A stretch of 63,529 nt of DNA from Gemmatimonadales bacterium. GTDB lineage: Bacteria; Gemmatimonadota; Gemmatimonadetes; Gemmatimonadales; JACORV01. The stretch is from assembly GCA_030697825.1 (NCBI GenBank), contig JAUYOW010000078.1:1-63529 (forward strand). The letters run 5' to 3'. Position 1 is the stretch's first letter; the number at the start of each line of letters is the position of its first letter. Made by a program: the position numbers and the translations under genes. The notes beneath the pieces were generated by a model. That model worked only from the letters and a program-made list of their open reading frames with translations. It searched no databases and was not told the origin of the DNA. Shown piece by piece: positions 1-15,020 of the stretch.

Positions 1-2007
1 CGACCTCTCCAGAGCACCACGGATTGGCAGCGGTGCGAGATCATCCTGGACGTGCCACCGACCGCGACACGGATCGTCTTCGGGGCCATTCTGGCCGGAT
101 CGGGTTCGTTGTGGATGGATGACCTGGCGCTCACGGCGGCAGACTCCGCCGCGACGCCGACCGGCCAGGTACTGGGTGCCCGCCCGGAGACCGCTTCGGG
201 TGCCGACCTTCCTGCCGAGCCTCACAATCTCGACTTCGAGAGCGCCGGCGTTCCGATCCCCCCGGCTGCCCCACCCCGCATGTGGGAATCGCGGCAGCTG
301 ACAACTCGCGGCCTCGCCAACCTCACGGCTTTCGCCCGCCTCCTCGGCTACGTCCGGTTCTTCCACCCTTCGGAAGCCGGCCGCGTGACGAACTGGGATC
401 AATTCGCGGTACGAGGGATCTCCGCGGTAGAAGGCTCACCGACGCCGGACAGCCTCGCCGTCGCGCTGCGCGCCGTCTTTCACGACGTAGCTGCTACCGT
501 GGTCGTGGCGCCAAGCAACCGGATCGCCGCGGCACGCCGAACCGCGCCGCTCGCCAAGCCCGCCGATGCTTCGGATGCCGGGGTCGCGTACTGGCTGCAC
601 TACGGCATCCAGCTCGGCCCGAATGCCCCCGGGCCTTACCGGAGTCGCCTCCGCATCGTCCCCGCCGGCGCACCCGATTCACTGGCTCCCAGCCCCGACG
701 CCGCCATCGAGGCGACGCTCGGCGGCGGCGTGAGCGCGCGTATCCCCCTGGCGCTGCGTGTCGCGGTGCCATCGGGCGGCGCGGACGACAGGGAGCGGAG
801 CCCCGGCCCGGATCCGGCCAGCGCGCGCTACTGGGCAGAGGATCGCGCCGCGCGGCTGGCCGACGTCGTGCTCCTCTGGGCTGTCATGCAACATTTCTAT
901 CCGTACTTCGACGTGGTGCGCACGGACTGGACCGCCACCCTCGAACCCAGTCTTCTCGCAGCGGCCGCGGATCCGACGGCCGCCGCCTTCGAGCGCACGC
1001 TCCGACTGATGCTCGTCGCACTGCACGACGGCCACGGCGGCGTCCGGCCGGCGGCGCGCTCGCCTCTCGGCGCGGCACCCGTGGCGCTCGATTGGGTCGA
1101 AGATCAGCTGGTGGTCAGCGCAGTCGCAGATTCCACGCAGGACACGGTGCGTCGCGGAGACGTGGTAGTCACCGTCGAGGGACGACCGGCGGCGCAGGTC
1201 GTCGCCGAGCGCATGGCCGGGATACCGAGTGCCACGCCCCGCTGGGCGCGATTCCGGGCCCTACAGGACTTGAGTTTGGGGTCCCCGGACTCCGCCTGGC
1301 ACGTCGGACTGCGGCACGCCGACGGCCAAGAGACGTTGGTCGCGCTGGCGCGAGTGATCAGTCGACCGCGGCTGGATCCGGAGCCACGGCCGGCACCGGT
1401 AGCCGAGCTTCGGCCCGGCGTCATGTACGTGGACCTCACGCGCATCGCGGACAGCACGTTCGAGGCGGCCGTGCCGAGACTGGAGGCAGCGCACGGCATC
1501 GTATTCGACATGCGCGGCTATCCGAGCCGGCTCAACACGCCGCGCGTCCTGGCGCATCTCAGCGACTCGACGATGCACTCAGCGAAGTTCGAAGTGCCGA
1601 TCGTGACCCGGCCCGACCGGGAGGGCGTTCGTTACCTCGAAGGCGGCTGGCCCGTGCCGCCGGCCCAGCCTCGCTTCCACGCCAGGGTTGCCTTCCTGAC
1701 GGATGGTCGCGCCATCAGCTATGCCGAGACCACCATGGGCATCGTCGAAGCGTACCACCTGGGGGACATCGTCGGCGACGCCACCGCAGGAACGAACGGC
1801 AACGTCAACCCTTTCACCCTGCCCGGCGGGTACGCGATCTCCTGGACCGGGATGCGGGTCCTGAAGCACGACGGCACGACGCACCACGGCGTGGGCATTC
1901 TGCCCACCGCGCGGGTGCAGCGTAGCTTGCGAGGCGTCCGCGAGGGACGGGACGAGGTGCTCGAAGCGGGCGTGCGGCTGGTGACCGGCGCGTCGCCGAA
2001 CCGTTAG
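1..2007 (+). CDS. S41-family serine peptidase (tail-specific/C-terminal-processing type), 5'-partial
   Basis: Frame 1 is open from base 1 with no stop before the listed start at 52, so the gene runs off the window. The C-terminal LTDGRAISYAETTMG...HHGVGILPT region resembles the S41 catalytic domain (motif-level only). Confidence 0.65.
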   Translation, partial: RPLQSTTDWQRCEIILDVPPTATRIVFGAILAGSGSLWMDDLALTAADSAATPTGQVLGARPETASGADLPAEPHNLDFESAGVPIPPAAPPRMWESRQLTTRGLANLTAFARLLGYVRFFHPSEAGRVTNWDQFAVRGISAVEGSPTPDSLAVALRAVFHDVAATVVVAPSNRIAAARRTAPLAKPADASDAGVAYWLHYGIQLGPNAPGPYRSRLRIVPAGAPDSLAPSPDAAIEATLGGGVSARIPLALRVAVPSGGADDRERSPGPDPASARYWAEDRAARLADVVLLWAVMQHFYPYFDVVRTDWTATLEPSLLAAAADPTAAAFERTLRLMLVALHDGHGGVRPAARSPLGAAPVALDWVEDQLVVSAVADSTQDTVRRGDVVVTVEGRPAAQVVAERMAGIPSATPRWARFRALQDLSLGSPDSAWHVGLRHADGQETLVALARVISRPRLDPEPRPAPVAELRPGVMYVDLTRIADSTFEAAVPRLEAAHGIVFDMRGYPSRLNTPRVLAHLSDSTMHSAKFEVPIVTRPDREGVRYLEGGWPVPPAQPRFHARVAFLTDGRAISYAETTMGIVEAYHLGDIVGDATAGTNGNVNPFTLPGGYAISWTGMRVLKHDGTTHHGVGILPTARVQRSLRGVREGRDEVLEAGVRLVTGASPNR

Positions 2008-2458
2008 TCAGGCCGGATGTTCCGGTTCAGGCGGAAGACGTTGGCCGGATCGTATTTCTGCTTGACCTCGCGCCGCGCGTAGCGCGGCCCGTAGGCGGCG
2101 GCCACGGGGTCGCCAGCCTCGTCGTCGCCCCGGTAGTTGACGTAGCGCCGTTCGGCCATGAAGGGCCTCATCGCGTCGAAGATCTTCCGCGCCCAGGCCA
2201 CTCATTCCTCGTTCTGCTTCGGGTCGAGCCACTGCGCGACAAGCAGCAGGGTGTACCGGAGTGCCGCTGGGGGAACGCGGTGTCGGTGACGCCGGCCCGC
2301 GTCACGGCGCCGTGGAGGTGCTCGAGGCGCACCGCGCCGAGCGGCGCGGGGCACCCACGGAAGGCGGCCACCATCGTGTCGATCGCCTCGTCGGTGAGGG
2401 TCGCCAGGAAGGTCGACCACGAGGTGCTCGCTCTCATCGCTGCCATGAGCCGACGCAC
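2004..2458 (-). pseudogene. FAD-linked oxidase remnant (C-terminal BBE-like domain only, frameshifted)
   Basis: Two overlapping minus-strand ORFs lie in different frames (2004-2201 and 2168-2458). The first ends ...YDPANVFRLNRNIRPD, the typical C-terminus of BBE-domain FAD oxidases. The N-terminal FAD-binding domain is missing, and similarity stops at the first attC. Confidence 0.55.
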
Positions 2459-2488
2459 GCCGCTCTAGCAGGCGCACGGCGCTGTGCC

Positions 2489-2613
2489 ACCTAACATCAA
2501 CCGCTTGTAGCAGTCGGCCCGGCCGGCCGCGCCGGCAGGTGTCTGTTGCGGCTCGGATGAAGTGTTGGCGCGGCCGAAGCGCCGGGCCGCAGCTAAAGCG
2601 CAACTCGTTAGAT
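2489..2613 (+). repeat. attC site 1
   Basis: R'' ACCTAAC (2489-2495) and R' GTTAGAT (2607-2613). The GC-rich imperfect inverted repeat between them has ggcccggccggccgcgccgg pairing with ggcgcggccgaagcgccgggcc. Confidence 0.65.
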
Positions 2614-2656
2614 GCCACCCAAGACCCACTATCTTGACGGTCCGCTGCGGTCGGCC

Positions 2657-2685
2657 TTGACCGCGGGCGTGGGTTGTCATACATT
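2657..2685 (+). promoter_or_regulatory. candidate sigma70-type promoter of the vapBC-like cassette
   Basis: TTGACC (2657-2662), a 17-nt spacer, then TACATT (2680-2685), ending 7 nt before the ATG at 2693 (near-leaderless). These AT-rich hexamers stand out in GC-rich DNA. The short palindrome TGTC...GACA overlaps the -10 and the start. Confidence 0.35.
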
Positions 2686-2692
2686 GTAGGAC

Positions 2693-2911
2693 ATGAAGAG
2701 CGCGCTCACTATCCGCCTCGACCGAGAGCTGCAACGGCGCCTCGATCGACTGTCGAAGCAATCCGGGCGGACTCGCAGCGAGATCGTACGCGACGCCCTC
2801 CGGCGGCAGCTTGCCCTGCTCCAGTTCGATCAGCTACGCCGCCAGGTCGCGCCGTTCGCTGAGGCGCGCGGCTACCTCACCGACGAGGACGTCTTCCGCG
2901 ACATCTCGTGA
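2693..2911 (+). CDS. vapB: ribbon-helix-helix (CopG/VapB-type) antitoxin
   Basis: 72 aa. The N-terminal LTIRLDRELQRRLDRLSKQSGRTRSEIVRDAL is a typical RHH motif. Its stop overlaps the downstream PIN gene start by 4 nt. Confidence 0.8.
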   Translation: MKSALTIRLDRELQRRLDRLSKQSGRTRSEIVRDALRRQLALLQFDQLRRQVAPFAEARGYLTDEDVFRDIS

Positions 2912-3321
2912 AGGTCTGCCTCGACTCGAACGTCCTCGTCAGTGCTTTTGCAACCCGGGGCCTCTCGGCCGATGTGTTGCGGATTGTGCTCGCCGAGCAT
3001 GAGTTGCTGGTACCTGAGGTGGTGTTGGCGGAAGTCCGAAAGGCGCTTGAACAGAAGTTCCGTCTCCCCGCGCAGGTCGTAACCGGCATCGAGCAACTGC
3101 TGCGCGATCAAACCGTCATTCCGAGGCCGCGCAAGCCATCAACCGTCCCGGTTCGTGACCCGGACGATGCTTGGGTCCTGGCATCTGGCATCGCGGGGGC
3201 GGCCGATGTCCTCGTTACCGGCGACAAGGACCTGCTGGTTGTCGCGTCGAAGGCGCCGCTACCAATCGAGTCGCCGCGCCAGTTCTGGGAGCGACTCCGG
3301 GGGCAATCGGGTGGCACCTAA
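2908..3321 (+). CDS. vapC: PIN-domain toxin (VapC-type)
   Basis: 137 aa. It has an MKVCLDSNVLVSAF N-terminus with the acidic D, a later DPDDAWVLA, and TGDKDLL motifs typical of PIN nucleases. Its TAA stop lies inside the attC R'' box. Confidence 0.8.
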   Translation: MKVCLDSNVLVSAFATRGLSADVLRIVLAEHELLVPEVVLAEVRKALEQKFRLPAQVVTGIEQLLRDQTVIPRPRKPSTVPVRDPDDAWVLASGIAGAADVLVTGDKDLLVVASKAPLPIESPRQFWERLRGQSGGT

Positions 3322-3441
3322 CTAGCGCTTGAACTTGTCGAGCCGGCTGGCCGCGCTGGCGCATTTGCTGTAGGTTATTCAGCAACAGCGCACCAGCGCG
3401 GCCAGAACGCCGGCTCGCAGGTTAAGCGCACTTCGTTAGGT
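3316..3441 (+). repeat. attC site 2 (family A)
   Basis: R'' ACCTAAC, spacer tagcgc, L'' TTGAAC, then ccggctggccgcgctggcg pairing with caccagcgcggccag, L' GTTAAG, and R' GTTAGGT (3435-3441). Confidence 0.8.
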
Positions 3442-3691
3442 GGCAACTGCTTATCCGCTTGCCTCCACGGAGCCCGGGCCAGCGGAACTTGGAGGGGCAC
3501 CGGCCGACAGGGACCGCTACTGCTTGGGGCTTGTGGAGCTAACCGGATAAGCAGAAGGTGGCATATGACCGCGTTATCGCTGGGGAATGCGTGAGATCGC
3601 TTATAGTCGATGACTGCTTTCGACCCAGAGCGGGCATTGAAGCGTGGACTTTCCGTAGGCTCCTCGGGAGGGAGGCGGAGGGGGCATTAGA

Positions 3692-4822
3692 GTGGTTCCG
3701 AACGTAAAGGGGATTGCCCGGGTCGGCGGCTACTGGATGCTCTTCGGCCTCGGGTTCCTTGCGGTGGGGCTGTTAATTTTGTATGTGTGTCTGGCATCGC
3801 CATTGCCGCCCCCCGGGTGCACGACCGGTAACGTCGCTACCTTCGGCGGCGTGCTCGCGCTCCTCGGAGCCTTGTTCATGTGCGTGCGCTGCGGCGTCAT
3901 TGTCGACCGGCAGCGACTCACTGTTACGACCTGGTGGGGGCTCCTCGTTCCGTTTCACAAGACCGAGCATCGCTTCTCGCAAAGCCATCATGTGACCCTG
4001 TCGCGCGAGGAGCGGCAAGCCGGCAAACGAACCTATGAAGTCTTTCCGGTGAGGCTGGAAGGCCCCGGCACCGATGCGATTACGCTTCACGAGCCTCGCG
4101 ATCACGACAAGGCGCGCCACCTCGCCGAGGAGATCGCCAAGTTCGTCCACCTCGGGATCCGGGACCGGTCCTCGGGAGAGGAAGTCGCGCGCGAGGCCGG
4201 CGCGCTCGACCAGTCTTTGCGGCAGCGCGTGAAGCGTTCGCGCCGGTCCCTGCCGCTTCCCGCGCAGCCGCCGCAAGCAAGGGCAATTTTCGAATACGGC
4301 GGAACCCGGGCGCCCACCACGATCGAGATCCCGCCTGTCGGCCACAGCGCGCGGGAGTTTCGGCTGATGATCTTTTTAGCGTGCTTTGGCGCCCTCTTTG
4401 GTGAACTGGTTAACTACAACGAGTGGGGCATGGAAATCGGCGTAATGGGGCTGTTCGGTTTCTTGTTCGTTCTGGTTATTTTCCTGCCGCTCTTAATTCG
4501 CAGCGCCATCGTCCGAGAGCGCCTGATCGTCTCGCCGGACGACCTCGTCGTTACCCAGCGCGATATCTTCGGCACGAAGACGACTCGGCTGACTTCCGGC
4601 GAGATCGAGGAAGTGGAAGTAATCCAGGCTAAGTACGGAATGTCCGGCGGCTTCGCGGTCATCGGCGGCGGCAAGGGCCGCGTCGCCATCCGTAGCGATC
4701 ACGGCTCAATCGAGCTGGGTGCAGCGCTCTCGAATCCGGAGGAGGTCAAGTGGCTAAGCGATGTCCTCGTTCATGTCCTGACCTCGGTTTCCCGTGATGC
4801 CGGCGGTAACGCCCGCGCCTGA
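3692..4822 (+). CDS. membrane protein with duplicated 2-TM + PH-like module (unknown function)
   Basis: 376-aa ORF filling one cassette. Two hydrophobic helix pairs (residues about 15-70 and about 225-265) are each followed by a soluble segment of about 90 aa (VIVDRQRLTVTTWW... and AIVRERLIVSPDDLVV...). Confidence 0.6.
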   Translation: MVPNVKGIARVGGYWMLFGLGFLAVGLLILYVCLASPLPPPGCTTGNVATFGGVLALLGALFMCVRCGVIVDRQRLTVTTWWGLLVPFHKTEHRFSQSHHVTLSREERQAGKRTYEVFPVRLEGPGTDAITLHEPRDHDKARHLAEEIAKFVHLGIRDRSSGEEVAREAGALDQSLRQRVKRSRRSLPLPAQPPQARAIFEYGGTRAPTTIEIPPVGHSAREFRLMIFLACFGALFGELVNYNEWGMEIGVMGLFGFLFVLVIFLPLLIRSAIVRERLIVSPDDLVVTQRDIFGTKTTRLTSGEIEEVEVIQAKYGMSGGFAVIGGGKGRVAIRSDHGSIELGAALSNPEEVKWLSDVLVHVLTSVSRDAGGNARA

Positions 4823-4864
4823 CCGATCGTAGGCATTCCACGTGACATCCGCGAATTGGCTGCC

Positions 4865-5086
4865 ACCTAACTAGCGCTGAGCCTGTGCGAAAACACCGTT
4901 CTGAGCACCCCTAAGTTGTTGATTTACAACGCTGCCACTGCTGCCAAAGTGGCGTTTTCACACGGGCTCCGCTTGAACCTGTCGAGCCGGCTGGCCGCGC
5001 TGGCGCCCTTGCGGTAAGTTATTCAGGGAACAGCGCACCAGCGCGGCCAGGACGCCGGCTCGCAGGTTAAGCGCCATTCGTTAGGC
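4865..5086 (+). repeat. attC site 3 (family A) carrying a 91-bp insertion
   Basis: R'' ACCTAAC (4865-4871) and R' GTTAGGC (5080-5086). Apart from the insert at 4879-4969 it is nearly identical to site 2. Confidence 0.8.
4879..4969. mobile_element. 91-bp MITE-like palindromic element, copy 1
   Basis: Its ends, GAGCCTGTGCGAAAACACC and GGCGTTTTCACACGGGCTC, form a 19-bp imperfect terminal inverted repeat. It is flanked by CGCT (4875-4878) and CGCT (4970-4973). The uninterrupted site 2 has a single CGCT at the same place. Confidence 0.75.
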
Positions 5087-5108
5087 AGCAACGGTCCGGA
5101 GCCACCCC

Positions 5109-5136
5109 TTGCCTGTATCACGGATACCGTTATATT
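5109..5136 (+). promoter_or_regulatory. candidate promoter of the higBA cassette
   Basis: TTGCCT (5109-5114), a 16-nt spacer, then TATATT (5131-5136), upstream of the GTG start at 5166. Confidence 0.35.
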
Positions 5137-5165
5137 AGCAGGGTGACCTCCCTCCGGCGGCGCCT

Positions 5166-5459
5166 GTGATTGTGTCCTTCGCCGATGCCGGCAGCGAGGA
5201 CATCTTCAATCGCCGGGATACCAAGATTGCGAGACGCACCTGCCCGGCCTCGTTGTGGCCTGTGGCGGGCCGCAAGCTGGATCAGCTGAACGCTGCGGTC
5301 AGCCTCGGGTCGCTGCGTGTCCCTCCCGGTAACCGCTTGGAGGCCTTGCGCGGCGACCGGGCGGGGGAGCACAGCATTCGCGTGAACCAGCAGTATCGGG
5401 TCTGCTTTACGTGGACCGAGGCCGGCCCTGAGCGTGTAGCGGTCGTCGACTATCACTAG
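5166..5459 (+). CDS. higB: HigB-type (RelE/ParE superfamily) toxin, plasmid-maintenance killer protein
   Basis: 97 aa. The pattern IVSFADAGSEDIFN...LRVPPGNRLEALRGDRAGEHSIRVNQQYRVCFTW is characteristic of HigB. The toxin-first gene order is typical of higBA. Confidence 0.8.
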   Translation: MIVSFADAGSEDIFNRRDTKIARRTCPASLWPVAGRKLDQLNAAVSLGSLRVPPGNRLEALRGDRAGEHSIRVNQQYRVCFTWTEAGPERVAVVDYH

Positions 5460-5467
5460 GAGCAGGT

Positions 5468-5797
5468 ATGGTTCGAATTCCTTCGCATGGAGCGCCCACG
5501 CACCCTGGCGAGATGCTGCTGGAGGAGCTCCTCAAGCCGTTGGGAATGACGCAGCGTGAGCTGGCCGCCCGGCTTGGCGTGTCGTACCCACGGATCAACG
5601 AGCTCATTCACGGCAAGCGTGGCGTCACGCCGGATACCGCCTTGCGGCTAGAGCAGTTGTTTGGTATGGAGGCTCAGTTCTGGCTGAATCTTCAGCTTGC
5701 GTGGGATCTCTACCACGCGGCGCGCTCGCCGGCCGCCCGGACCATTCGTCGCATCAAGCGGCTCCGGCGCTCGCCGCGGTCCCGGGTTGCTGCCTAA
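5468..5797 (+). CDS. higA: HigA-type antitoxin (XRE-family HTH)
   Basis: 109 aa. HPGEMLLEELLKPLGMTQRELAARLGVSYPRINELIHGKRGVTPDTALRLEQLFG matches the HigA HTH. Its TAA stop is embedded in the attC R'' GCCTAAC. Confidence 0.8.
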   Translation: MVRIPSHGAPTHPGEMLLEELLKPLGMTQRELAARLGVSYPRINELIHGKRGVTPDTALRLEQLFGMEAQFWLNLQLAWDLYHAARSPAARTIRRIKRLRRSPRSRVAA

Positions 5798-5899
5798 CAA
5801 TCGCGTGAAGTTGACGAGCCGCGGCGCGGCGCGCATACCAAGGTGCGGTTGTGGCGCTCTTGGGCGCCGCGCCTCGCAACTTACGTGCGGTCGTTAGGC
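5792..5899 (+). repeat. attC site 4
   Basis: R'' GCCTAAC (5792-5798) and R' GTTAGGC (5893-5899) are perfectly complementary. The inner inverted repeat has gttgacgagccgcggcgcggcgcg pairing with gcgccgcgcctcgcaac. Confidence 0.75.
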
Positions 5900-5927
5900 G
5901 GCAACGCTGATCGGGGGGCGATACCGC

Positions 5928-6104
5928 ATGCTCCAGCTTTGGCAAGTAATCGGGCTCGTGGTCGTAGCCGTCCTTCTGGTCGTGCTCGCAAGTCGTGTCC
6001 GCAGCGCACACCGCTCGGCCGGACCGCAGAACTCGTTGTGGTTCGATGTCGGCGGTCACGGTCAGCATCACCACAGCCACGGCACCGAAGGCTCGTCCCA
6101 CTAA
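5928..6104 (+). CDS. small (58 aa) single-TM peptide with His-rich tail; below the ORF-track cutoff
   Basis: Starts at ATG 5928. Translation is MLQLWQVIGLVVVAVLLVVLASRVRSAHRSAGPQNSLWFDVGGHGQHHHSHGTEGSSH. It is the only sense ORF in this cassette, and its TAA stop sits in the CTAAC core of the next attC-like site. Confidence 0.45.
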   Translation: MLQLWQVIGLVVVAVLLVVLASRVRSAHRSAGPQNSLWFDVGGHGQHHHSHGTEGSSH

Positions 6105-6200
6105 CTGTACCACGTGGTCGTTCCCTTGGAGCCTTCCGTGAGCCAACGAACAAGGCCTCCGTAGTCACTGAGAGACAGCCTGTGGCGTAGGTCGTTCGCA
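6099..6200 (+). repeat. degenerate attC-like site 5
   Basis: R''-like CACTAAC (6099-6105) and R'-like GTTCGCA (6194-6200; compare ggtcGTTCGGC in family B). TACCACGTGG pairs with CCTGTGGCGTA with unpaired bases. Confidence 0.4.
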
Positions 6201-6246
6201 AAGCTGTTGGCGCCCCCGGTGAACCCCGACGTCGTGACGAGCTCGG

Positions 6247-7917: not shown

Positions 7918-8201
7918 GACACACCTCACATGCAGCGGTTCACGGCCGAGTGGTACGGGGTTACGCGACCGCCGCCTCCCGAGATCATCCGGTGGGCGCA
8001 GCGTCTCAGAGGACTGGATGCCGGAGCGACGGGCAGCGTTGCAGGGCCGAGGGCGCAACCGGTCTCAGAGCCGCCGACTAAGGTCTGAGACCGCGGAGCG
8101 GTCACCCTCTTGGCCGCTCCACAGCACAACTTCGGCACAATGCGAAGCCGCCGGCCGATGGAGCGCTGGGGCTAACAGATTGCTGGGCTTGATGTTAGGA
8201 G

Positions 8202-8246
8202 TGGCCAGGGACGGAATCGAACCGCCGACACGCGGATTTTCAGTCG
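8202..8246 (-). pseudogene. tRNA-Phe(GAA) 3' fragment (anticodon loop to acceptor 3' strand)
   Basis: The reverse complement reads ACTGAAAATCCGCGTGTCGGCGGTTCGATTCCGTCCCTGGCCA. This gives a CTGAAAA anticodon loop, a variable loop, a T-arm (GGCGG TTCGATT CCGTC), and an acceptor 3' strand. No matching 5' acceptor strand (GGCCAGG) or D-arm follows. Confidence 0.6.
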
Positions 8247-8691
8247 CCGACAGGGCTTTCCTCGTGAACCCCTTGAGGTCTCCCGCAGTCACCAAGCCTA
8301 TCCGACAGTAGCAGACAAGATTCTGGGCCGTCCCCGCCTGTCCCGGTAAGGCTGATCCTGTCCCGCCCCACTATCCGCACCAGTCTGCGGGCTCCCCTGC
8401 GCAGCCCGTTGCTCGTCCTCCGCCTCGTCCTCCTTCAGGAACCAGAGGAGCCGAGAGAACTTGGTTCAGCCTCTCGCTGAAGTTTGTGTTTTCGAGATGT
8501 TTTCCGCTGACGGGCTGAAGCGACTCAGCCCAACTTGCGGCCTCAACCTGGGGCTGGCACTGGTCGGGCGCCGTCGCCACGGAATGCCGGCTGCTGGCTC
8601 AACCGCACCGCGGTCACCTTAAACTCGAGGCTGTACTCTCGCACCTTCCTCGGCCCCGGCCGTGCCACAGACACCCCCTTGTTAGATGGAA

Positions 8692-8841
8692 GTGTCTACG
8701 AAAGTGAGGGAGGTTCCCGGGCCGGCTGGACGCGCTGGCGGCGCCCGCGCCGAGCTTCTATGCTAGAGACAGTATTCAGAGGCGCGGGCTTGCCAGCGCG
8801 TCCAAGACGCCGGCCCGCAGCTTAAACCCATCGCGTTATAC
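8692..8841 (+). repeat. attC site (family A, degenerate R'')
   Basis: GTGTCTAC looks like GTCTAAC minus one A. It is followed by ccgggccggctggacgcgctggcgg pairing with gccagcgcgtccaagacgccggcccgcag, then CTTAAA, then R' GTTATAC (8835-8841). Confidence 0.55.
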
Positions 8842-8889
8842 GGCGCCGACGAGTCATCGCGACGAGAGAGAACCGGAGGCGAGCGAGCC

Positions 8890-9126
8890 GTGAACTATGA
8901 CACAGATAAGGTCGACGAGGCGGTGCTCGCCCTCATGTACCTCAACCTGCACGAGGGCTCAGGAGGTACGCGCGCGTGGAAGGGTTTCGACTGGGACGCG
9001 CTTGGGCGCCTCCACCAGCGCGGGATGATAGCGAGCCCTCGTGGCAAGGCGAGATCGGTGCTCCTTACGGCCGAGGGCCGGAAAGCTTGCGAGACCGCAT
9101 TTGCCAGGCAATTCGGCGCCGTCTAA
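8890..9126 (+). CDS. DUF6429-like small protein
   Basis: 78 aa. The pattern DKVDEAVLALMYLNLHE...RAWKGFDWDALGRLHQRGMI is recognised from memory as the DUF6429 family. Its TAA stop is inside R'' GTCTAAC. Confidence 0.6.
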   Translation: MNYDTDKVDEAVLALMYLNLHEGSGGTRAWKGFDWDALGRLHQRGMIASPRGKARSVLLTAEGRKACETAFARQFGAV

Positions 9127-9314
9127 CTTGCGCTGAGCCTGTGCGAAAACACCGTTCTGAGCACCCCTAAGTTGTTGATTTACAACGCTGCCACTGCTGC
9201 CAAAGTGGCGTTTTCACACGGGCTCCGCTTGCAGTTGACGGGCCGCCCGCCGAGGTTGGTGCAGCCGCTGCGCACGGAGTGGGCGGCCCGCAACTGAAGC
9301 GCTATCTGTTATGC
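9121..9314 (+). repeat. attC site carrying a 91-bp insertion
   Basis: R'' GTCTAAC (9121-9127) and R' GTTATGC (9308-9314). The inner inverted repeat has gcagttgacgggccgcccgcc pairing with gtgggcggcccgcaactgaagc. Confidence 0.7.
9135..9225. mobile_element. 91-bp MITE-like palindromic element, copy 2
   Basis: Identical in sequence to copy 1. It is flanked by CGCT (9131-9134) and CGCT (9226-9229), at the same offset (14 nt) from the start of R''. Confidence 0.75.
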
Positions 9315-9339
9315 AGCCAGCGATCACCAACAGCGGGAG

Positions 9340-9870
9340 GTGTCCGTGCCTCGGATTCGGTACGCGGTGGCGATCAGTTTGGATGGCTATATCGCAGGGC
9401 CCAAGGGCGAAGCCGACTGGATCCTCATGGATCCTGACATCGATTTTCGCGCCTTATTCGCGCAATTCGACACATTTCTCATGGGGCGCCGCACCTTCGA
9501 GGGAATGGCGGGCGCAGGTGGCCCCGGGGCAGCGGGCGGGAAGACCTTCGTCTTCTCTCGCAGTCTGCGGCCGCTGGACCATCCGGACGTGACGATCATC
9601 GCTGACGTGTCACCAGCGACGGTCGCCCCCATTCGGGCGCAAGCAACGAAGGACATTTGGCTGTTCGGTGGAGGACTCCTGTTTCGGAGTTTTCTGGACG
9701 CGGGGCTCGTGGATACGGTGGAGGTCGCGGTCATCCCAGTGCTCCTCGGCGGCGGGCTCCCGCTTCTTCCACACCCAGCCCATCAGGCGAAGCTCGCGCT
9801 GACCGGCCACCGAGTGTACAAGACGGGCATTGTCTCCCTGGAGTACGCCGTGACAAAACTGGCTGCCTAA
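9340..9870 (+). CDS. dihydrofolate-reductase-family protein (RibD C-terminal-domain type)
   Basis: 176 aa. RYAVAISLDGYIAGPKGEADWI...FLMGRRTFE...IWLFGGGLLFRSFLDAGLVDTVEVAVIPVLLGGG is typical of this family. Its TAA stop is inside R'' GCCTAAC. Confidence 0.75.
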   Translation: MSVPRIRYAVAISLDGYIAGPKGEADWILMDPDIDFRALFAQFDTFLMGRRTFEGMAGAGGPGAAGGKTFVFSRSLRPLDHPDVTIIADVSPATVAPIRAQATKDIWLFGGGLLFRSFLDAGLVDTVEVAVIPVLLGGGLPLLPHPAHQAKLALTGHRVYKTGIVSLEYAVTKLAA

Positions 9871-10085
9871 CTAGCGCTGAGCCTGTGCGAAAACACCGTT
9901 CTAAGCACCCCTAAGTTGTTGATTTACAACGCTGCCACTGCTGCCAAAGTGGCGTTTTCACACGGGCTCCGCTTGAACCTGTCGAGCCGGCTGGCCGCGC
10001 CGACGCTCTTGCGGTAAGTTGTTCAGGAACAGCGCAGCGGCGCGGCCATGACGCCGGCTCGCAGGTTAAGCGCACTTCGTTAGAC
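9865..10085 (+). repeat. attC site (family A) carrying a 91-bp insertion
   Basis: R'' GCCTAAC (9865-9871) and R' GTTAGAC (10079-10085). The backbone is nearly identical to sites 2 and 3. Confidence 0.8.
9879..9969. mobile_element. 91-bp MITE-like palindromic element, copy 3
   Basis: Differs from copies 1 and 2 by one substitution (G to A at 9903). It is flanked by CGCT (9875-9878) and CGCT (9970-9973). Confidence 0.75.
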
Positions 10086-10110
10086 GGCGGCGATTGACCA
10101 TCACGAGCGA

Positions 10111-10362
10111 GTGGTGCAAGCTTCGGCGGTGGACTTTCGGATACTCAGCCGGATAACCAACGTCGAGACCATCGCATCCGGTCGCGGCATCCGTGAACTC
10201 AAGCGCCTTCTGCGGGTGTACGGGAGGGCTCGGTGGCGCAAGCGGAGGGGCGTTGCCACGGTCGAGCTCCAGGACGGCGCGGTTCGGCTCGCCGAGTTAC
10301 ATTGGTACGAGGCGTCAGGAGTGGGTCGCAAGGAGTTCAAGATCAAACACTACCTCGACTAG
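10111..10362 (+). CDS. conserved hypothetical small protein (first gene of a two-gene cassette)
   Basis: 83 aa. It has a basic WRKRRG segment and a C-terminal AELHWYEASGVGRKEFKIK motif. No family assignment is possible by eye. Confidence 0.5.
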   Translation: MVQASAVDFRILSRITNVETIASGRGIRELKRLLRVYGRARWRKRRGVATVELQDGAVRLAELHWYEASGVGRKEFKIKHYLD

Positions 10363-10373
10363 GTCTAACCGCA

Positions 10374-10598
10374 ATGGCCGCTGCTCGCAATTTCGTTCTG
10401 TGCCTTCGCAATGGTGGCTACGAGGTGTCCCTCGAGCCCCGGAAACTCTATCAGGCCATACCCGACCGCCACGCCGCGGCACACGGACAGCTGCGCGTTG
10501 TCGACGAGTCGGGCGAAGACTATCTCTATCCTAAGTCGCTCTTTGCTCCCATCAAGCTACCGCAAGCTGTTCGCCGCGCCGCTTTCGCCGCCGTCTAA
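10374..10598 (+). CDS. conserved hypothetical small protein (second gene of the cassette)
   Basis: Starts at the internal ATG 10374 of the listed 10233-10598 ORF. Translation is MAAARNFVLCLRNGGYEVSLEPRKLYQAIPD...LRVVDESGEDYLYPKSLFAPIKLP. Its TAA stop is inside R'' GTCTAAC. Confidence 0.5.
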   Translation: MAAARNFVLCLRNGGYEVSLEPRKLYQAIPDRHAAAHGQLRVVDESGEDYLYPKSLFAPIKLPQAVRRAAFAAV

Positions 10599-10758
10599 CT
10601 AACAGTTGTAGCTGACGAAGCGCCGCGTCCGCGCCGTGCGCCGTGGCGTTTGTGGGCTGCCTATCGTATGCTCAAGGCAGCTTCCCGCCGGTGGCCGTTC
10701 GGTGCGCACGCGGCACCGTGCCCGGCGGCACTTCGCAGCTAAACTGTACTCGTTAGGT
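10593..10758 (+). repeat. attC site
   Basis: R'' GTCTAAC (10593-10599) and R' GTTAGGT (10752-10758). The long imperfect inverted repeat has agttgtagctgacgaagcgccgc pairing with gcggcacttcgcagctaaactgt. Confidence 0.7.
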
Positions 10759-10778
10759 GGCACACGCTGAGAACCAAT

Positions 10779-11120
10779 GTGCGAGTCGCGACCGGGCTGT
10801 TCGTCCTCGCCCTTGCTGGCTGTCATCGCGCAGCGAGCACTTACAGCGAGACATCGCCTACCAGAACTTGCGCCGGTCGTCTAGTCCTGGAATTCACCAA
10901 TCGTTTAGTGGAACCAGTACAGGTTGGCTGGATTCCCGCAGGCGATTCTAGCACCGTCTCTGTTGAGGTAGGCCCGACCTGGCTCGGTACCATCGGCCGG
11001 GGTACTGCGCGCTATGCGGTAATGGGACCGGGGTACGTGATCTTTCGCACGGCGAACCCCTCTGGGCTCACCGGAGAGCACCATGATGTGACCCACCGTC
11101 TGCTCTGCGTCCAAGGCTAG
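10779..11120 (+). CDS. small lipoprotein (unknown function)
   Basis: 113 aa. The N-terminal MRVATGLFVLALAGC carries a lipobox. Confidence 0.55.
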   Translation: MRVATGLFVLALAGCHRAASTYSETSPTRTCAGRLVLEFTNRLVEPVQVGWIPAGDSSTVSVEVGPTWLGTIGRGTARYAVMGPGYVIFRTANPSGLTGEHHDVTHRLLCVQG

Positions 11121-11158
11121 TAGCAGGGAGCGAGGCGGTTAGAGCCCGAGGTGTGCCA

Positions 11159-11291
11159 CCTAACTAGGAATTGAACCTGTCGAGGGCCGGCTGGCCGCGC
11201 TGGCGGGTGCACTCGCCAAGCGTTATCGTAGGCTACGTAGGGCCAGCGCGGCCAAGGCGCCGGCTTGCAGCTTATGCACTATGCGTTATAC
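11159..11291 (+). repeat. attC site (family A)
   Basis: R'' ACCTAAC, then TTGAAC, then ctgtcgagggccggctggccgcgctggcg pairing with ccagcgcggccaaggcgccggcttgcag, then CTTATG, then R' GTTATAC (11285-11291). Confidence 0.75.
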
Positions 11292-11318
11292 GCATTAGCC
11301 GATTCGGTTGGTGGTGTG

Positions 11319-11801
11319 ATGCAGATTCGGCGGCTAGAACCCTCAGACCGCGAGTGGTCGAACGCGCTGGTCGGCGCCCATTTCGGCTCGTCACGCGTCG
11401 TCTCACGCGGTCGGCTGTACGACGCGACTGCCCTTCCCGGGTTCATCGCGATGCATGACGGTGTCCCTGCGGGCCTGCTCCAGTTCCGGATCGCCGGGAG
11501 CACCTGCGAGGTCGTGGTCCTGGTGGTCGAACGGCCCCGCGAGGGTGTCGGCACTGCCTTGCTGGACTCGATGCGGGAGGCGGCTCGCTCCGCCGGTTGC
11601 TCTCGTCTGTGGCTCGTCACGACCAACGACAACACGGTGGCGCAGTCGTTCTATCGGGCTCTCGGCTGGCGGCTCGTGACGGTCCACAAAGGGGCCGTGA
11701 CGCGCTCGCGCGTCCTCAAGCCGGAGATTCCTGAGTTTGGCGCAAACGGTGTGGCGATCGAGGACGAACTTGAATACGAACTGTGCGTAAGTCGCGTATA
11801 A
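11319..11801 (+). CDS. GNAT-family N-acetyltransferase
   Basis: The start is taken at ATG 11319, because the listed start at 11265 lies inside the attC. ERPREGVGTALLDSMREAARSAGCSRLWLVTTNDNTVAQSFYRALGW is a GNAT motif A region. Its TAA stop is inside R'' GTATAAC. Confidence 0.75.
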   Translation: MQIRRLEPSDREWSNALVGAHFGSSRVVSRGRLYDATALPGFIAMHDGVPAGLLQFRIAGSTCEVVVLVVERPREGVGTALLDSMREAARSAGCSRLWLVTTNDNTVAQSFYRALGWRLVTVHKGAVTRSRVLKPEIPEFGANGVAIEDELEYELCVSRV

Positions 11802-11881
11802 CAAGAGCTTGAACCTGACGCGCCGAAGGTGGTCATACTCTGAAAGCGCGCGGCGCGCAGGTTAAGCTCAACACGTTAGCG
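11796..11881 (+). repeat. attC site (short)
   Basis: R'' GTATAAC (11796-11802), then cttgaacctgacgcgccg pairing with gcgcggcgcgcaggttaag, then R' GTTAGCG (11875-11881). Confidence 0.65.
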
Positions 11882-12006
11882 TGCAGCAAAGAACAAAGTT
11901 GGTTTCGGGAAGAGCGGCATCGTCTCAATCATTCGGCCATCGGTCCGCTGCGCCAGGGCAGCCGCAGCTTTGGATGCACGCGGCGGCGCCCCACCATGGT
12001 GGCGAT

Positions 12007-12096
12007 CGGCACATGGTTGAGAGCGGCGCGATCTTCCCAGACGCTGGTTTCGTTCTGGGCGCCACCGCGCCGCAACTTAAGCCCATGTCGTTCGGC
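12007..12096 (+). repeat. degenerate attC-like site closing an ORF-less cassette
   Basis: ggttgagagcggcgcg pairs with cgcgccgcaactt, followed by aagcccatgtc and R' GTTCGGC (12090-12096). The R'' is poorly conserved (CGGCACA). Confidence 0.4.
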
Positions 12097-12114
12097 GGCC
12101 TAGGAACGGTGAGA

Positions 12115-12636
12115 ATGACCGACACTCAGCAGGAGATTCAAATCCGTGGCGCGGTGCTTGATGACGCCGAAGCGCTCGTCAGCGTTCTCAACCCAATCAT
12201 CGAAGCGGGAACCACGGCACTCGATACGATGCTGACGGTTGCTGACGAGCGCGACTACATTGCGAGCTTGCCAGAGCGAGCGATCTTTCTCGTCGCGGCA
12301 CGGGCGCTCGACGGAACGCTCGTCGGGTGCCAAAGCGTGGAACCGTTCACGACTGGGGGGACGCACGCCTTCGATCACGTTGGGGTGATGGGGACCTACG
12401 TGGCCGTGGGGCACCAACGGCGGGGGATTGGGCGGCGATTGTTCGAGGCGATGTTCGAGCAGGCGCGGCGCAAGGGCTACGAGAAGATCTTCACGTATGT
12501 GCGTGCGGACAACACGGCAGGGATGGCGGCGTACCTTGGGCAGGGATTTCGGGTCATCGGGACGGCTGAACGACATGCGAAGATCGATGGACAATATATT
12601 GACGAGGTGCTCATCGAGCGGTTTCTACCCGACTGA
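12115..12636 (+). CDS. GNAT-family N-acetyltransferase (YncA/PAT-like)
   Basis: The start is taken at ATG 12115, downstream of the attC-like site and preceded by ggtgag. HVGVMGTYVAVGHQRRGIGRRLFEAMFEQARRKGYEKIFTYVRADNTAGMAAYLGQGF is a GNAT core. Confidence 0.75.
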   Translation: MTDTQQEIQIRGAVLDDAEALVSVLNPIIEAGTTALDTMLTVADERDYIASLPERAIFLVAARALDGTLVGCQSVEPFTTGGTHAFDHVGVMGTYVAVGHQRRGIGRRLFEAMFEQARRKGYEKIFTYVRADNTAGMAAYLGQGFRVIGTAERHAKIDGQYIDEVLIERFLPD

Positions 12637-12673
12637 CTGCCTACGGGTCGAAGCAAAACGTACAGCAACGGCC

Positions 12674-12767
12674 GCCGAACCAGCGCTTGCACCGGAGGCC
12701 GGCGCAGCCGAGGCCTCATCCTTCGTCCGGTATCGTTGCGCCGGCCCGGTGAACTTGGTCGTTCGGC
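12674..12767 (+). repeat. attC site (family B)
   Basis: R'' GCCGAAC, spacer cagcgc, TTGCAC, then ccggaggccggcgcagc pairing with gttgcgccggcccgg, then TGAAC, then ttggtc and R' GTTCGGC (12761-12767). Confidence 0.75.
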
Positions 12768-12788
12768 GGCTTGCCGCGGCGTGACTGT

Positions 12789-13529
12789 ATGGTGAATGAA
12801 CTCGGGCATGTTTGCGAACTTGTGCGGTATCCCGTCAAGTCGATGGCTGGTACCGTGACGGAGTCGGCATTTCTCGGGTGGCACGGTCTCGATGGTGATC
12901 GGCGCTTCGCCTTCCGGCGCTTGGGAGATGACAGCGGTTTCCCGTGGCTTACCGCGAGCCGCGTCGCTGAACTCCTTCTGTACCACCCGTTCGGTCTCGA
13001 CGAGAGTACCGGCGAGCCCCTGCCAACTCACGTACGCACACCGGTCGGAACGCACGTGGAGCTTCGCAGCGTAGAGCTCCAGAGCGAGGTCGGCGAGCGT
13101 TTTGGGAGCAGCGTGGAATTGATGAGGCTCAAGCACGGGATCTTCGATGAAGCCTCGGTATCGGTGATTAGCCTGGCGACCATTGCTGGCATCGGTGGCG
13201 AGGCGGGAGTGGACCTCGATCGCAGGCGCTTCCGAGCCAACATTGTGCTTGAGACTCGCGGCCGCGAGCCGTTTCTCGAGGATGGGTGGGTTGGCGGGAC
13301 ACTGGTGTTCGGCAACAGCGAGCCAAGGCCAGCCGTGAGCGTGACGGTGCGCGACGTGCGATGTATGATGATCAACCTCGATCCGGACACGGGCACACAA
13401 GACGCGCGGGTGCTGAAGACAGTCGTCCGGCTGAACAAGAACAACGCGGGCGTCTATGGAACGGTGGTGCAAACCGGTACAATCCGCGTTGGCGACCCAG
13501 TGAGCCTCGTATTGGACGCGCGGCGCTAA
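12789..13529 (+). CDS. MOSC-domain protein (YcbX-like)
   Basis: VCELVRYPVKSMAGT...GLDGDRRFAF is a MOSC N-terminal beta-barrel pattern, followed by a C-terminal MOSC-like region (FRANIVLE...). The start is taken at ATG 12789. Confidence 0.7.
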   Translation: MVNELGHVCELVRYPVKSMAGTVTESAFLGWHGLDGDRRFAFRRLGDDSGFPWLTASRVAELLLYHPFGLDESTGEPLPTHVRTPVGTHVELRSVELQSEVGERFGSSVELMRLKHGIFDEASVSVISLATIAGIGGEAGVDLDRRRFRANIVLETRGREPFLEDGWVGGTLVFGNSEPRPAVSVTVRDVRCMMINLDPDTGTQDARVLKTVVRLNKNNAGVYGTVVQTGTIRVGDPVSLVLDARR

Positions 13530-13554
13530 GACGAGCGTTTGACGTTTTCGCGCC

Positions 13555-13647
13555 GCCGAACTAGCGGTTGCACCGGACGCGGCGCAGCGGAGTCTTATTG
13601 GTTCATCGAGTGCGGCCGCGCCGCGCCGGTGAACCTGGGCGTTAGGC
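13555..13647 (+). repeat. attC site (family B); last confident site
   Basis: R'' GCCGAAC (13555-13561), spacer tagcgg, TTGCAC, then cggacgcggcgcagcgg pairing with ccgcgccgcgccgg, then TGAAC, then ctgggc and R' GTTAGGC (13641-13647). Confidence 0.75.
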
Positions 13648-13701
13648 AGCAACCGACGCTGCGACCTGATTTGTGTCGCCGGACTGGCCCGTACTACGCT
13701 G

Positions 13702-14010
13702 TTGGGGTCTTACGACCAGCCTAGGCTCCACTTCCTCGGTGCGTCCGCGCTGGTGCTTGGCTCGCTGCTCATCGGCATGGCAGGCTACGCCCACTTCGAA
13801 GGCCTGGCTTGGCGGGATGCCTTTCTGAATGCCGCGATGCTGCTTGGCGGTATGGAGCCGGTTGAATCGCCTCAGACCGCTGGGGGCAAGCTCTTCGCCG
13901 GTCTTTACGCCCTCTACGCTGGTCTCGTGTTCCTCGTTGCGGTGGGTATCGTTTTGGCGCCGGTCGTCCATCGGCTGCTGCACCGGTTCCATTGGGACGC
14001 TGACGGCTGA
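13702..14010 (+). CDS. small multi-TM membrane protein (ion-channel pore-loop-like, unknown function)
   Basis: 102 aa with three hydrophobic segments. WRDAFLNAAMLLGGMEP resembles a degenerate pore-loop region. The start codon is uncertain (TTG 13702 or ATG 13777). Confidence 0.45.
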   Translation: MGSYDQPRLHFLGASALVLGSLLIGMAGYAHFEGLAWRDAFLNAAMLLGGMEPVESPQTAGGKLFAGLYALYAGLVFLVAVGIVLAPVVHRLLHRFHWDADG

Positions 14011-14067
14011 CCGGGACGCCCGCGGGCCGCGCGACCGTGAGCGGTCCCCCGCGCTCAGGCACTTGCG

Positions 14068-14128
14068 GACGAAGAGGACTCGGCCCAGGGACCCGCGGAG
14101 GGGCACGACGGGATCCTCATCGTTCGTG
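14068..14128 (+). repeat. possible degenerate attC-like site
   Basis: GACGAAG is followed by GAGGACTC pairing with GGATCCTC, then catc and GTTCGTG (14122-14128). It is short, both core boxes deviate, and it does not match the TTAGGC half-site at 13642. Confidence 0.2.
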
Positions 14129-14139
14129 GTGGTGGCGGC

Positions 14140-14424
14140 GTCCGCGGTAGGAACGGTATTCGCTACCAGGCCGGGTTGTCCGGCAAGAACGTCGGAGCCA
14201 AAGAGCTCTCGATGAACGTCGCGACGATCCCGCCCGGCGGCGTCGCATATGCCCACGTTCACGTGGGCTTCACGGAACCCGTTGTGGCGGTCGTCGCGCG
14301 GTCCGACCCAAGTGAGTGGGAGAACATCATCCCGTACGAGCGAGGCGCTCATGGCTTGCCGGGGAGCGGCGACGGCGTTACGCTGACTGGCGTGGACGCC
14401 CAGGATCCCACCTCAGGAGCTTAG
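14140..14424 (+). pseudogene. cupin-domain protein remnant with internal deletion
   Basis: GAKELSMNVATIPPGGVAYAHVHVGFTE is joined directly to VVAVVARSDPSEWENIIPYE. In intact homologues, as recalled, about 40-50 aa of the cupin barrel separate these two motifs. Confidence 0.45.
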
Positions 14425-14427
14425 GGA

Positions 14428-14601
14428 ATGTCGAAGAGCGACGAACAGCGAATGGCTGCTTTGATCAGGAAGAATGCCGCCAAGGTCGCACAGGCCAAGG
14501 CCAAGGTGCAGCGCAACTACGATAGCACCTTGCAGCCACAACCGGACGACGATCCGGAGTTGAGGGCCTTCTTCTCGGAGATGAAGAAGCGCGAGTTCTA
14601 G
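14428..14601 (+). CDS. hypothetical 57-aa protein (below the ORF-track cutoff)
   Basis: ATG 14428 is preceded by AGGAG (14415-14419). The product is hydrophilic (MSKSDEQRMAALIRKNAAKVAQAKAKVQRNYD...EMKKREF). Confidence 0.3.
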   Translation: MSKSDEQRMAALIRKNAAKVAQAKAKVQRNYDSTLQPQPDDDPELRAFFSEMKKREF

Positions 14602-14717
14602 GGCTATCCTCAGCGCTCTCCCCGCACCACGACGTGACGAAGGGTTAGATTCAAGGTGCGCACCCGGGTCTGGTGGCTCCCCGGCGTCGGCATCACTCTC
14701 ACGTCTGCGAGTCTTCC

Positions 14718-14954: not shown

Positions 14955-15020
14955 GTGACCGGAGGTCGCGGGGCGATCGAGGCGCCGCGACGACCGCACA
15001 CCTCAACCAGGAATACCGCG

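Follow-up and report, generated by a model that had tools for sequence, protein, structure and literature searches.

A chromosomal integron cassette array without an adjoining integrase in a contig of an uncultured Gemmatimonadales bacterium

Introduction

A stretch of 63,529 nucleotides from a Gemmatimonadales bacterium (GenBank assembly GCA_030697825.1, contig JAUYOW010000078.1, positions 1 to 63,529 of the forward strand; hereafter the window) carries near its left end a run of imperfect palindromes alternating with short open reading frames (ORFs). An earlier note, made from the letters alone, read these palindromes as attC sites, the recombination sites of integron cassettes, and saw no integrase gene beside them. 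Is this run an integron cassette array, to which class of array does it belong, and how could it have come to stand without an integrase? It is shown below that positions 2489-13647 hold a chromosomal integron cassette array with no adjoining integrase, that is, a cluster of attC sites lacking integron-integrase (CALIN) in the sense of Cury et al. (2016), a reading to which we give a probability of about 0.88. The array is real, was correctly read in the earlier note and is ordinary for the field, so that it holds no surprise for an integron specialist. Its only possibly new component is a short element found solely inside attC sites, which resembles a MITE (miniature inverted-repeat transposable element).

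Architecture of the attC sites

Repeat finding and direct reading brought out a series of imperfect palindromes on the + strand, each starting with a heptamer that ends in AAC and closing with a heptamer that begins with GTT. Thirteen sites were retained (a1 to a13 from left to right), namely ten intact ones, one degenerate one (a9, 11158-11291) and two partial 3' halves (a5', 8718-8840; a11, within about 11882-12096); the count of fourteen to sixteen, and of at least fourteen, that had been proposed was too high. Seven of the intact sites are undamaged: a1 (2489-2613, 125 bp, ACCTAAC...GTTAGAT), a2 (3316-3441, 126 bp), a4 (5792-5899, 108 bp), a8 (10593-10758, 166 bp), a10 (11796-11881, 86 bp), a12 (12674-12767, 94 bp) and a13 (13555-13647, 93 bp). 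The other three, a3 (4865-5086), a6 (9121-9314) and a7 (9865-10085), carry a 91-bp MITE-like insert and are otherwise intact. Not counting the insert and the 4 bp duplicated with it, the sites measure 86-166 bp, as had been stated. All ten intact sites lie on the + strand, with a spacing of 0.2-1.6 kb except where a 2.6-kb insertion intervenes. They extend over 2489-13647, and one further cassette-like ORF follows, ending at about 14010. The span of 2003-14128 originally given to the array shrinks accordingly. The heptamers at 2003 (GTTAGTC), 10363 (GTCTAAC) and 14128 (GTTCGTG) were supported by no model. The array also differs in composition from its surroundings: the window has a GC content of about 70%, the region from 2.5 to 14.7 kb of 62-66%, and the cassettes of 62-65% against 70% in the flanks.

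When the 5' arm of each site is set against the reverse complement of its 3' arm, a common plan appears, consisting of R'' (7 nt), a spacer of 5 nt (8 in a1), three pairs, an extra G, six pairs, a second extra base and a long stem. Counted from R'', the first extra base, a G on the top strand, comes 8 nt on (in a1, 11 nt on); the second, which is T or A (AG in one site), follows 6 bp beyond it. The 3' arm leaves 6-8 nt unpaired before R', so the spacer is asymmetric, with 5 nt on one side and 6-8 nt on the other. The heptamer-bounded palindromes were thus described correctly as to architecture, which proved to be strand-specific; the strict consensus RYYYAAC / GTTRRRY is matched by only seven of the ten R'' and seven of the ten R' heptamers, and the looser ...AAC / GTT... 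form is present in all ten. R'' and R' pair at 4-7 of 7 positions in the intact sites. Such imperfect pairing is expected, as most of R' derives from the neighbouring cassette.

Folded as single-stranded DNA, the bottom strands form hairpins with an R box, an unpaired spacer, an L box and two single-base bulges on the 3' arm, at z-scores of -3 to -9 (-9.2 for a2, with a bulged A and a bulged C), in agreement with the two extrahelical bases anticipated for attC sites. Since the top strand carries the unpaired G, it is a C that is extrahelical on the recombinogenic bottom strand. The pair of extrahelical bases is then A/T-N6-C, a rarer type than the commonest T-N6-G, and the single unpaired G, which had been taken for the usual attC feature, is present but on the less usual strand. 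Most attC sites carry G at that bulge; T-N6-C and A-N6-C sites have nevertheless been recombined, and some integrases prefer C (Larouche and Roy, PMC3053210).

How far such sites arise by chance was controlled with a scanner written for this plan (R'', 5-8 nt, 3 bp, one extra base, 6 bp, 0-2 extra bases, 5 bp and the mirrored 3' arm), which was run over both strands with the three 95-bp insertions masked. Ten sites were returned at 13-14 of 14 inner-box pairs, all of them on the + strand within 2489-13647, and none on the - strand or in the other ~50 kb. Thirteen pairs were scored by a1, a2, a4 and a12, and all fourteen by a3 and a6 (without their inserts), a7, a8, a10 and a13. Among composition-preserving block-shuffles, one site reached 13 once (1/20 shuffles). 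When the R box was counted as well, for 21 pairs in all, the sites scored 19-20, and no score above 18 was seen in 40 shuffles. Counting RYYYAAC and GTTRRRY heptamers alone gave little enrichment and was uninformative. A symmetric arm-alignment scanner used earlier had been discarded in favour of the architecture-specific one, as it did not separate the strands and its scores overlapped those of shuffled sequence.

The sites are less alike than had been thought. Mean pairwise identity across the array is 59%. Sites a2, a3 and a7 form a family (A) of 87-91% identity, and the site at 11159 (a9), formerly grouped with them as near-identical, shares 71-74% with these three. The second family (B), composed of a12 and a13 as proposed, has a mutual identity of 74%. 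The homogeneity that had been read as the hallmark of a sedentary chromosomal integron was therefore overstated.

A soil attC type and its integron integrase

A 24-nt pattern of the 3' arm was scanned against metagenomes of the Joint Genome Institute (JGI) and matched at least 120 contigs, nearly all of them of soil-type projects; 80 of these contigs (L018-L097) were analysed. In these 80 contigs the scanner finds 249 sites on the strand of the pattern and none on the opposite one, in arrays of up to 20 sites. The same extra G on the top strand occurs in 242 of the 249, and it is hence a property of this soil attC type and not an anomaly of the window. The soil sites fall into discrete length classes of about 90, 93, 102, 137-138 and 140-141 nt. 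Two sites of the window have close metagenome counterparts, a6 (80% over 95 nt) and a10 (84% identical), and a window cassette of two small ORFs (10111-10599) has a homologue of 67% nucleotide identity in soil contig L063, where its neighbours are others.

In one of these soil contigs, L044 (Ga0209376_1002218), an integron with attC sites of this type is complete (3390-14125); it has 18 attC sites and 18 or more cassettes. Its integrase of 330 aa matches TIGR02249 at 419 bits (cut-off 265), is 52% identical to IntI1 and has the insert that distinguishes IntI from XerD. The attC array starts 612 bp downstream of the intI stop codon, and a GTTAGGC junction lies about 200 bp after that stop codon, directly upstream of the first cassette. 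The gene is transcribed in the same direction as its cassettes and attC sites. Another contig, L075, appears to overlap the L044 array. Judged by sequence, the window array belongs to the soil attC type that is served by such co-oriented ('inverted') integron integrases.

Recognition by models built outside the window

No attC family exists in Rfam, and the window is without Rfam matches. Two covariance models free of window sequence, R1 and R3, therefore stood in as proxies for the attC model of IntegronFinder. For R1, twelve genuine attC sites were cut from class 1 integron arrays in PLSDB plasmids; nine of them gave a clean alignment and went into the model, in which the pairs of the R and L boxes were specified. 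When both strands of the full window were searched with it, the four highest-scoring matches were a4, a13, a8 and a12, at 15-33 bits (32.9 with E 1e-6, 22.3, 19.9 and 15.1, respectively), with exact ends and on the + strand. Held-out genuine attC sites gave 21 bits (estX) and 18 bits (arr-3), that of dfrA5 was missed, and the L044 sites scored 10-23 bits. Four of the ten intact sites are thus detected by a class 1 model with scores at or above those of held-out genuine sites.

R3 was built solely from 15 attC sites of the IntI-bearing integron L044. Its ten best matches in the window are the ten intact sites, at 20.7-55.6 bits and approximate E-values of 1e-15 to 1.3e-4, on the + strand and with exact ends, and its best match outside the array reaches 11.6 bits (E 0.1). 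Individual scores are 27.1 bits (E 1e-6) for a1, 47.7 for a2, 23.9 for a3 (over 4966-5086), 55.6 for a4, 25.4 for a6, 23.0 for a7 (whole site), 26.1 for a8, 38.1 for a10, 20.7 for a12 and 25.8 for a13; the half-site a5' obtains 10 bits. The covariance-model check that had been suggested for the array, as approximated by these proxies, came out in its favour, in ten of ten intact sites with R3 and in four of ten with R1.

Profile hidden Markov models (HMMs) of the two arms, derived from 218 distinct metagenome attC sites, point the same way. All eight matches of the 3'-arm HMM at E <= 0.002 and all matches of the 5'-arm HMM at E <= 0.06 lie inside the array and on the + strand; elsewhere in the window matches are at E 0.3 or worse, one of them on the - strand. 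The 3'-arm HMM recognises a1 (E 8e-5) as well as the half-sites a5' (E 0.0016) and a11 (...GTTCGGC, E 7e-5). The degenerate a9 was missed by the scanner and by R3 and obtained E 0.8 with the 5'-arm HMM. Repeat families D2 and D7 include a5', and D4 includes a11. An arms-only model (R2) built from six window sites handled the long central loops badly, recovered its own seeds only in part and was not used as evidence, and a MAFFT alignment of full-length window sites misaligned the 3' arms.

The absent integrase and the ends of the array

As the earlier note had stated, no tyrosine recombinase was found in the window: searches with tblastn, phmmer and hmmsearch gave no credible match to IntI1 (a query 100% identical to the database IntI1), XerD, the L044 integrase and a two-sequence IntI profile. 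A match of 65 aa to the N-terminal domain of the L044 integrase (45766-45960, - strand, E 0.006) was rejected as chance; it lies 32 kb from the array, and the ORF around it (45250-46068) has no Pfam match and no integrase or catalytic domain.

The left flank begins with the 3' part of an S41-family peptidase gene (1-2007, + strand, Pfam PF03572, 70% GC), an assignment that agrees with the first one; it has no stop codon from base 1 on and continues beyond the left end of the window. In a GTDB scan its nearest relatives are metagenome-assembled genomes of Thermoanaerobaculia, at 49% identity. Convergent with it, at 2004-2488 on the - strand, is a frameshifted C-terminal remnant of a BBE-domain FAD-linked oxidase with 69.9% GC, recognised as PF08031 on the identical Logan contig L001. 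This remnant is truncated exactly where a1 starts, and a1, which is complete and includes R'', follows immediately, no cassette ORF separating the two. Window positions 1494-3436, including the junction, are 100% identical in L001 (SRR13727529), which may not be independent of the source of the window. This 1.9-kb contig was the one return of exact-protein look-ups, which came back empty for two other cassette proteins. In L044 the integrase occupies the position where the oxidase remnant sits here. Taken together, the left edge looks like a deletion or rearrangement breakpoint and is probably not a junction made by an integrase.

The right end is less sharp. Lower GC continues past the last attC to about 14.7-15.9 kb, together with small + strand ORFs and a DinB gene, and no attC site was found by any model after the ORF at 13702-14010 or in the lower-GC DNA beyond it. 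Between 13648 and 15880 the + strand ORFs are 13702-14010, 14176-14424, 14428-14601 and 14673-14954, followed by the DinB_2 gene (14955-15554); these may be cassettes that have lost their attC sites by decay. Further downstream, a full-length HypF carbamoyltransferase of hydrogenase maturation is encoded at 18373-20775 (+ strand), and the chromosomal neighbourhood therefore includes hydrogenase accessory genes.

Cassette genes

Sites and ORFs point the same way, and the stop codon of six ORFs is the TAA inside the R'' heptamer, which bears out the remark that the sites directly follow short ORFs of the same strand. The cassette content had also been described correctly from the translations, and it is confirmed here by Pfam and, for the lipobox protein, by reading of the sequence. 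No cassette ORF precedes a1. A toxin-antitoxin cassette follows it at 2693-3321, in which an RHH antitoxin (2693-2911) is followed by a PIN toxin (2908-3321), and the next ORF (3692-4822) encodes 376 aa, apparently a membrane protein without family match. Behind a3 stands a second toxin-antitoxin cassette (5166-5797), composed of a HigB-like toxin (5166-5459) and an HTH antitoxin of the HigA kind (5468-5797). The following ORF of 58 aa (5928-6104), without a model match, has lost its own attC, of which an R''-like CACTAAC at 6098-6104 is left. To the right of the 2.6-kb insertion come a DUF6429 ORF (8890-9126, Pfam E 1e-27), a RibD_C or dihydrofolate-reductase-like ORF (9340-9870, PF01872, E 2e-20) and the cassette with the homologue in L063, whose two small ORFs (10111-10362 and 10375-10599) have no assigned function. 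An ORF of 113 aa with a lipobox (LAGC; 10779-11120), without family match, and a GNAT acetyltransferase (11265-11801) come next, followed after a10 by a unit without ORF (11882-12096), which has a degenerate 5' half and ends in the half-site a11. A second GNAT acetyltransferase (12115-12636) and a MOSC domain protein (12771-13529) come before the two family B sites, a12 and a13, respectively. The last cassette-like ORF (13702-14010) encodes a hydrophobic protein of 102 aa and is followed by no attC. No resistance gene was recognised among the window cassettes.

A promoter scan gave sigma-70-like matches at 2657-2685 and 5109-5136 (+ strand), directly upstream of the RHH/PIN and the HigB/HigA cassettes. 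It gave none before most other cassettes and none before a1, the match at 2657-2685 being the first. Toxin-antitoxin cassettes habitually carry their own promoter. As cassettes without a promoter of their own are expected to be silent where Pc is lacking, most of those in the window are probably silent, except for the two toxin-antitoxin cassettes, which would also be expected to stabilise the array.

Insertions within attC sites

Three attC sites are interrupted by copies of a non-coding 91-bp element, at 4879-4969 in a3, 9135-9225 in a6 and 9879-9969 in a7 (all + strand). The element ends in GAGCCYGTGYGAAAAC and has terminal inverted repeats (TIRs) of 19 bp, 16 of which match (GAGCCYGTGYGAAAACRCC). 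All three copies occupy the same position, between R'' and L'', in the same orientation and in sites of two families. CGCT flanks the element on both sides (4875-4878 and 4970-4973 in a3, where positions 11-14 of the 5'-arm HMM are matched twice), and CGCT occurs only once in a2, the family A site that is empty. From copy to copy 0-1 base differs (that in a7 has one mismatch to the others), and one of the host sites is only ~60% identical to the other two. Short, non-coding, bounded by TIRs, flanked by a target-site duplication and present in near-identical copies, the element has the attributes of a MITE. No other copy of it, and no autonomous insertion sequence (IS) sharing its ends, was found in the window, the 80 soil loci or the PLSDB plasmids, nor were other insertion-split attC sites found in the 80 soil loci; the literature searched held no description of an attC-specific element of this kind.

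One proposal is that this is a MITE which specifically targets attC, inserting between R'' and L'' at ..GCGCT|TG.. in one orientation. The proposal is tentative and stands at somewhat worse than even odds. The evidence is also compatible with spread of the copies by gene conversion between the 5' arms of attC sites, instead of site-specific transposition. Elements known to target attC are the IS1111-attC group and the group IIC-attC introns. Like these, the 91-bp element sits at one fixed attC position in one orientation; unlike them it is non-coding, has TIRs and a 4-bp duplication, and was seen without a partner transposase. If it does target attC, a third such kind of mobile element would join those two; cassettes could become immobile through it, or it could be the sign of an array out of reach of integrase activity. 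On plasmid NZ_CP038280.1 (L013, ~3690-5650), the attC of a class 1 cassette was seen to be split by a group II intron (ltrA), a textbook case of such targeting with which the 91-bp element was compared.

The half-site a5' results from a larger insertion. A segment of 2.6 kb (6105-8717), which is not a cassette, replaces the 5' half (R'' and L'') of this attC. What is left of the site is a family A-like 3' half at 8718-8840, ending in GTTATAC. Within the segment, an ORF on the - strand (6247-8058) has a signal-peptide-like N-terminus and a zinc-protease motif HEAFH (HExxH), and it matches nothing in Pfam or NCBIfam. That one split attC has left both the CACTAAC at 6098 and the half-site was considered and rejected, as their inner boxes are not complementary. 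A tRNA-like 3' half, with a GGTTCGATTCC T-arm and a GAA anticodon-like loop, was noticed by eye at ~8200-8250 on the - strand; it is unconfirmed and absent from the ARAGORN and Rfam results.

Discussion

The assignment to the CALIN class follows the definition of at least two clustered attC sites with no intI nearby (Cury et al., 2016, PMC4889954): the window has ten intact ones and no intI. In a complete integron, intI would lie within about 4 kb of the attC cluster; none was seen in the 2.5 kb that are visible on the left side. Nor were attI and the cassette promoter Pc found at the end where an integrase would be proximal, a weak test as attI is without a general model. Sedentary chromosomal integrons have more than 19 attC sites by the operational rule of Cury et al., or are conserved throughout the species, and their sites are highly similar, whereas the 13 sites of the window have a mean identity of 59%.

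That the repeats are generic palindromes of the repetitive extragenic palindromic (REP) or bacterial interspersed mosaic element (BIME) kind, or terminator-like structures unrelated to integrons, would fit their being GC-rich palindromes placed after ORFs, and it is scarcely credible for all that. REP and BIME copies are dispersed and occur in both orientations, whereas these repeats are strictly one-way and have no copies on either strand of the other ~50 kb, so that the dispersal test proposed earlier, as approximated within the window, speaks for an array. They show AAC/GTT cores, two bulges 6 bp apart and an unpaired spacer, are recognised by attC models from class 1 and from IntI-linked sites, and occur as the same type beside an integron integrase in L044. 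More deserving of attention, though still unlikely, is an array that never had an integrase of its own and arose at a secondary site of the chromosome, where IntI inserted cassettes away from any attI. Secondary-site insertion is a documented route to CALINs (PMC4889954), and a GTTAGTC heptamer overlaps the stop codon of the S41 peptidase gene at 2003-2009. However, the segment from 2003 to the first attC has chromosomal GC (69.9%) and a truncated oxidase gene and is not a cassette, and the array opens with a complete attC and no preceding cassette ORF, whereas a left junction made by IntI would read G|TT followed by a cassette ORF.

A distinctly better chance, if still short of even, attaches to the integron being complete or split, with the array as its distal part and with an integrase, just beyond the left end or elsewhere in the genome, that still shuffles the cassettes; this would be the 'detached sedentary chromosomal integron' of the earlier note, active in trans. 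Seven attC sites are undamaged at 13-14 of 14 pairs, the cassette ORFs all give full-length family matches, about half of the CALINs surveyed are in replicons that encode IntI (Cury et al., PMC4889954), and a mere 2.5 kb can be inspected to the left. Set against this, in L044, the sole IntI-linked array of this attC type, intI is immediately beside the first cassette, and the equivalent position in the window is held by chromosomal genes of native GC; three attC sites are split by the MITE-like element, one is truncated and one is degenerate; and no intI follows in 50 kb downstream. The reading of the array as a CALIN that has parted from its integrase has its own weak points. The S41 gene runs on beyond the window, so intI may be located farther upstream, and a deletion origin rests on one junction. 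All cassette ORFs look intact and seven attC sites show no damage, so the array may still be in use instead of decaying. The base bulged nearest the R box is C, which is known to function (PMC3053210) but is less usual than G. Finally, the covariance models are proxies used in place of IntegronFinder, with E-values that are rough owing to a short calibration, and R1 misses the family A sites. This last miss was not counted against those sites because R1 misses the genuine dfrA5 attC too and gives arr-3 and estX only 18-21 bits.

With these points weighed, we infer, weakly, that the array most likely lost its integrase end by deletion or rearrangement and that it is undergoing progressive decay. 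The erosion is read from the three MITE-like insertions, the attC half replaced by 2.6 kb, one degenerate and one partial site, and the lack of a terminal attC. Loss of the integrase is one of the routes that Cury et al. proposed for the unexpectedly common CALINs (PMC4889954).

How the cassettes might still move can be outlined as follows. Each attC would act as an imperfect palindrome whose bottom (-) strand forms a hairpin composed of an R box of 7 bp, a spacer that is unpaired and asymmetric, and an L box, in which two bulged bases of the 3' arm, A or T and then C, would lie 6 bp apart. Such a folded single strand is bound by an integron integrase and cleaved within the R' box, whereupon ORF and attC leave together as a circle, which the enzyme re-inserts at attI. 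The window sites are predicted to be recombinable in this way, by analogy with the same attC type beside a TIGR02249 integrase in L044. Because no intI, attI or Pc adjoins the array, its cassettes would be mobile only with IntI supplied in trans, either encoded elsewhere in the genome or brought in by a mobile element.

Comparison with known integrons

With the chromosomal integrons of soil and freshwater type whose intI is co-oriented with the cassettes (the 'inverted' IntI group), represented here by L044, the window shares the attC arms, R''-5 nt-CTT[G]AAGCTG[N]CG...CAGCTTAAG-8 nt-R', with the same extra G on the top strand, and cassette GC is below flank GC in both. The two differ in that L044 possesses intI and the GTTAGGC junction upstream of its first cassette, neither of which is present in the window, and mean attC identity is 68% in L044 against 59% here. 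In this way the window array is tied to an attC type which is very common in soil metagenomes and, in these, is linked to a co-oriented integron integrase.

The attC sites (59-base elements) of the class 1 cassettes blaVIM-2, cmlA1 and estX have the same R''/R' cores and the same bottom-strand C (top-strand G), and in both groups the first bulge is 8 nt after R'' and the second 6 bp further. Window sites are longer (86-166 against ~60-110 bp) and GC-rich, and their spacer is more asymmetric (5 vs 6-8 nt); in contrast to class 1 integrons, no known resistance cassette is among the window cassettes. Vibrio-type superintegrons are likewise chromosomal arrays with toxin-antitoxin cassettes and some near-identical attC sites, to which the 87-91% within family A may be compared. 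The window array differs from them in lacking an integrase, in having only 13 sites of at least six attC families at 59% mean identity, and in showing nothing like the homogeneity of the Vibrio cholerae repeats (VCR).

CALINs remain the closest counterpart. In common with them, the window array has attC sites on one strand with no intI nearby, is chromosomal, and carries mostly unknown or accessory cassettes without recognised resistance genes. Those with more than 10 attC sites make up 6.6% of the CALINs surveyed (PMC4889954), so the window array is larger than most; with it, the known CALINs gain a well-documented and fairly large member, whose host is an uncultured soil-type bacterium of high GC. 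The array stands apart in its left end, where the break within a chromosomal gene is plain to see; together with the internal damage, this breakpoint makes it a concrete example of how integrase loss may come about and erosion set in.

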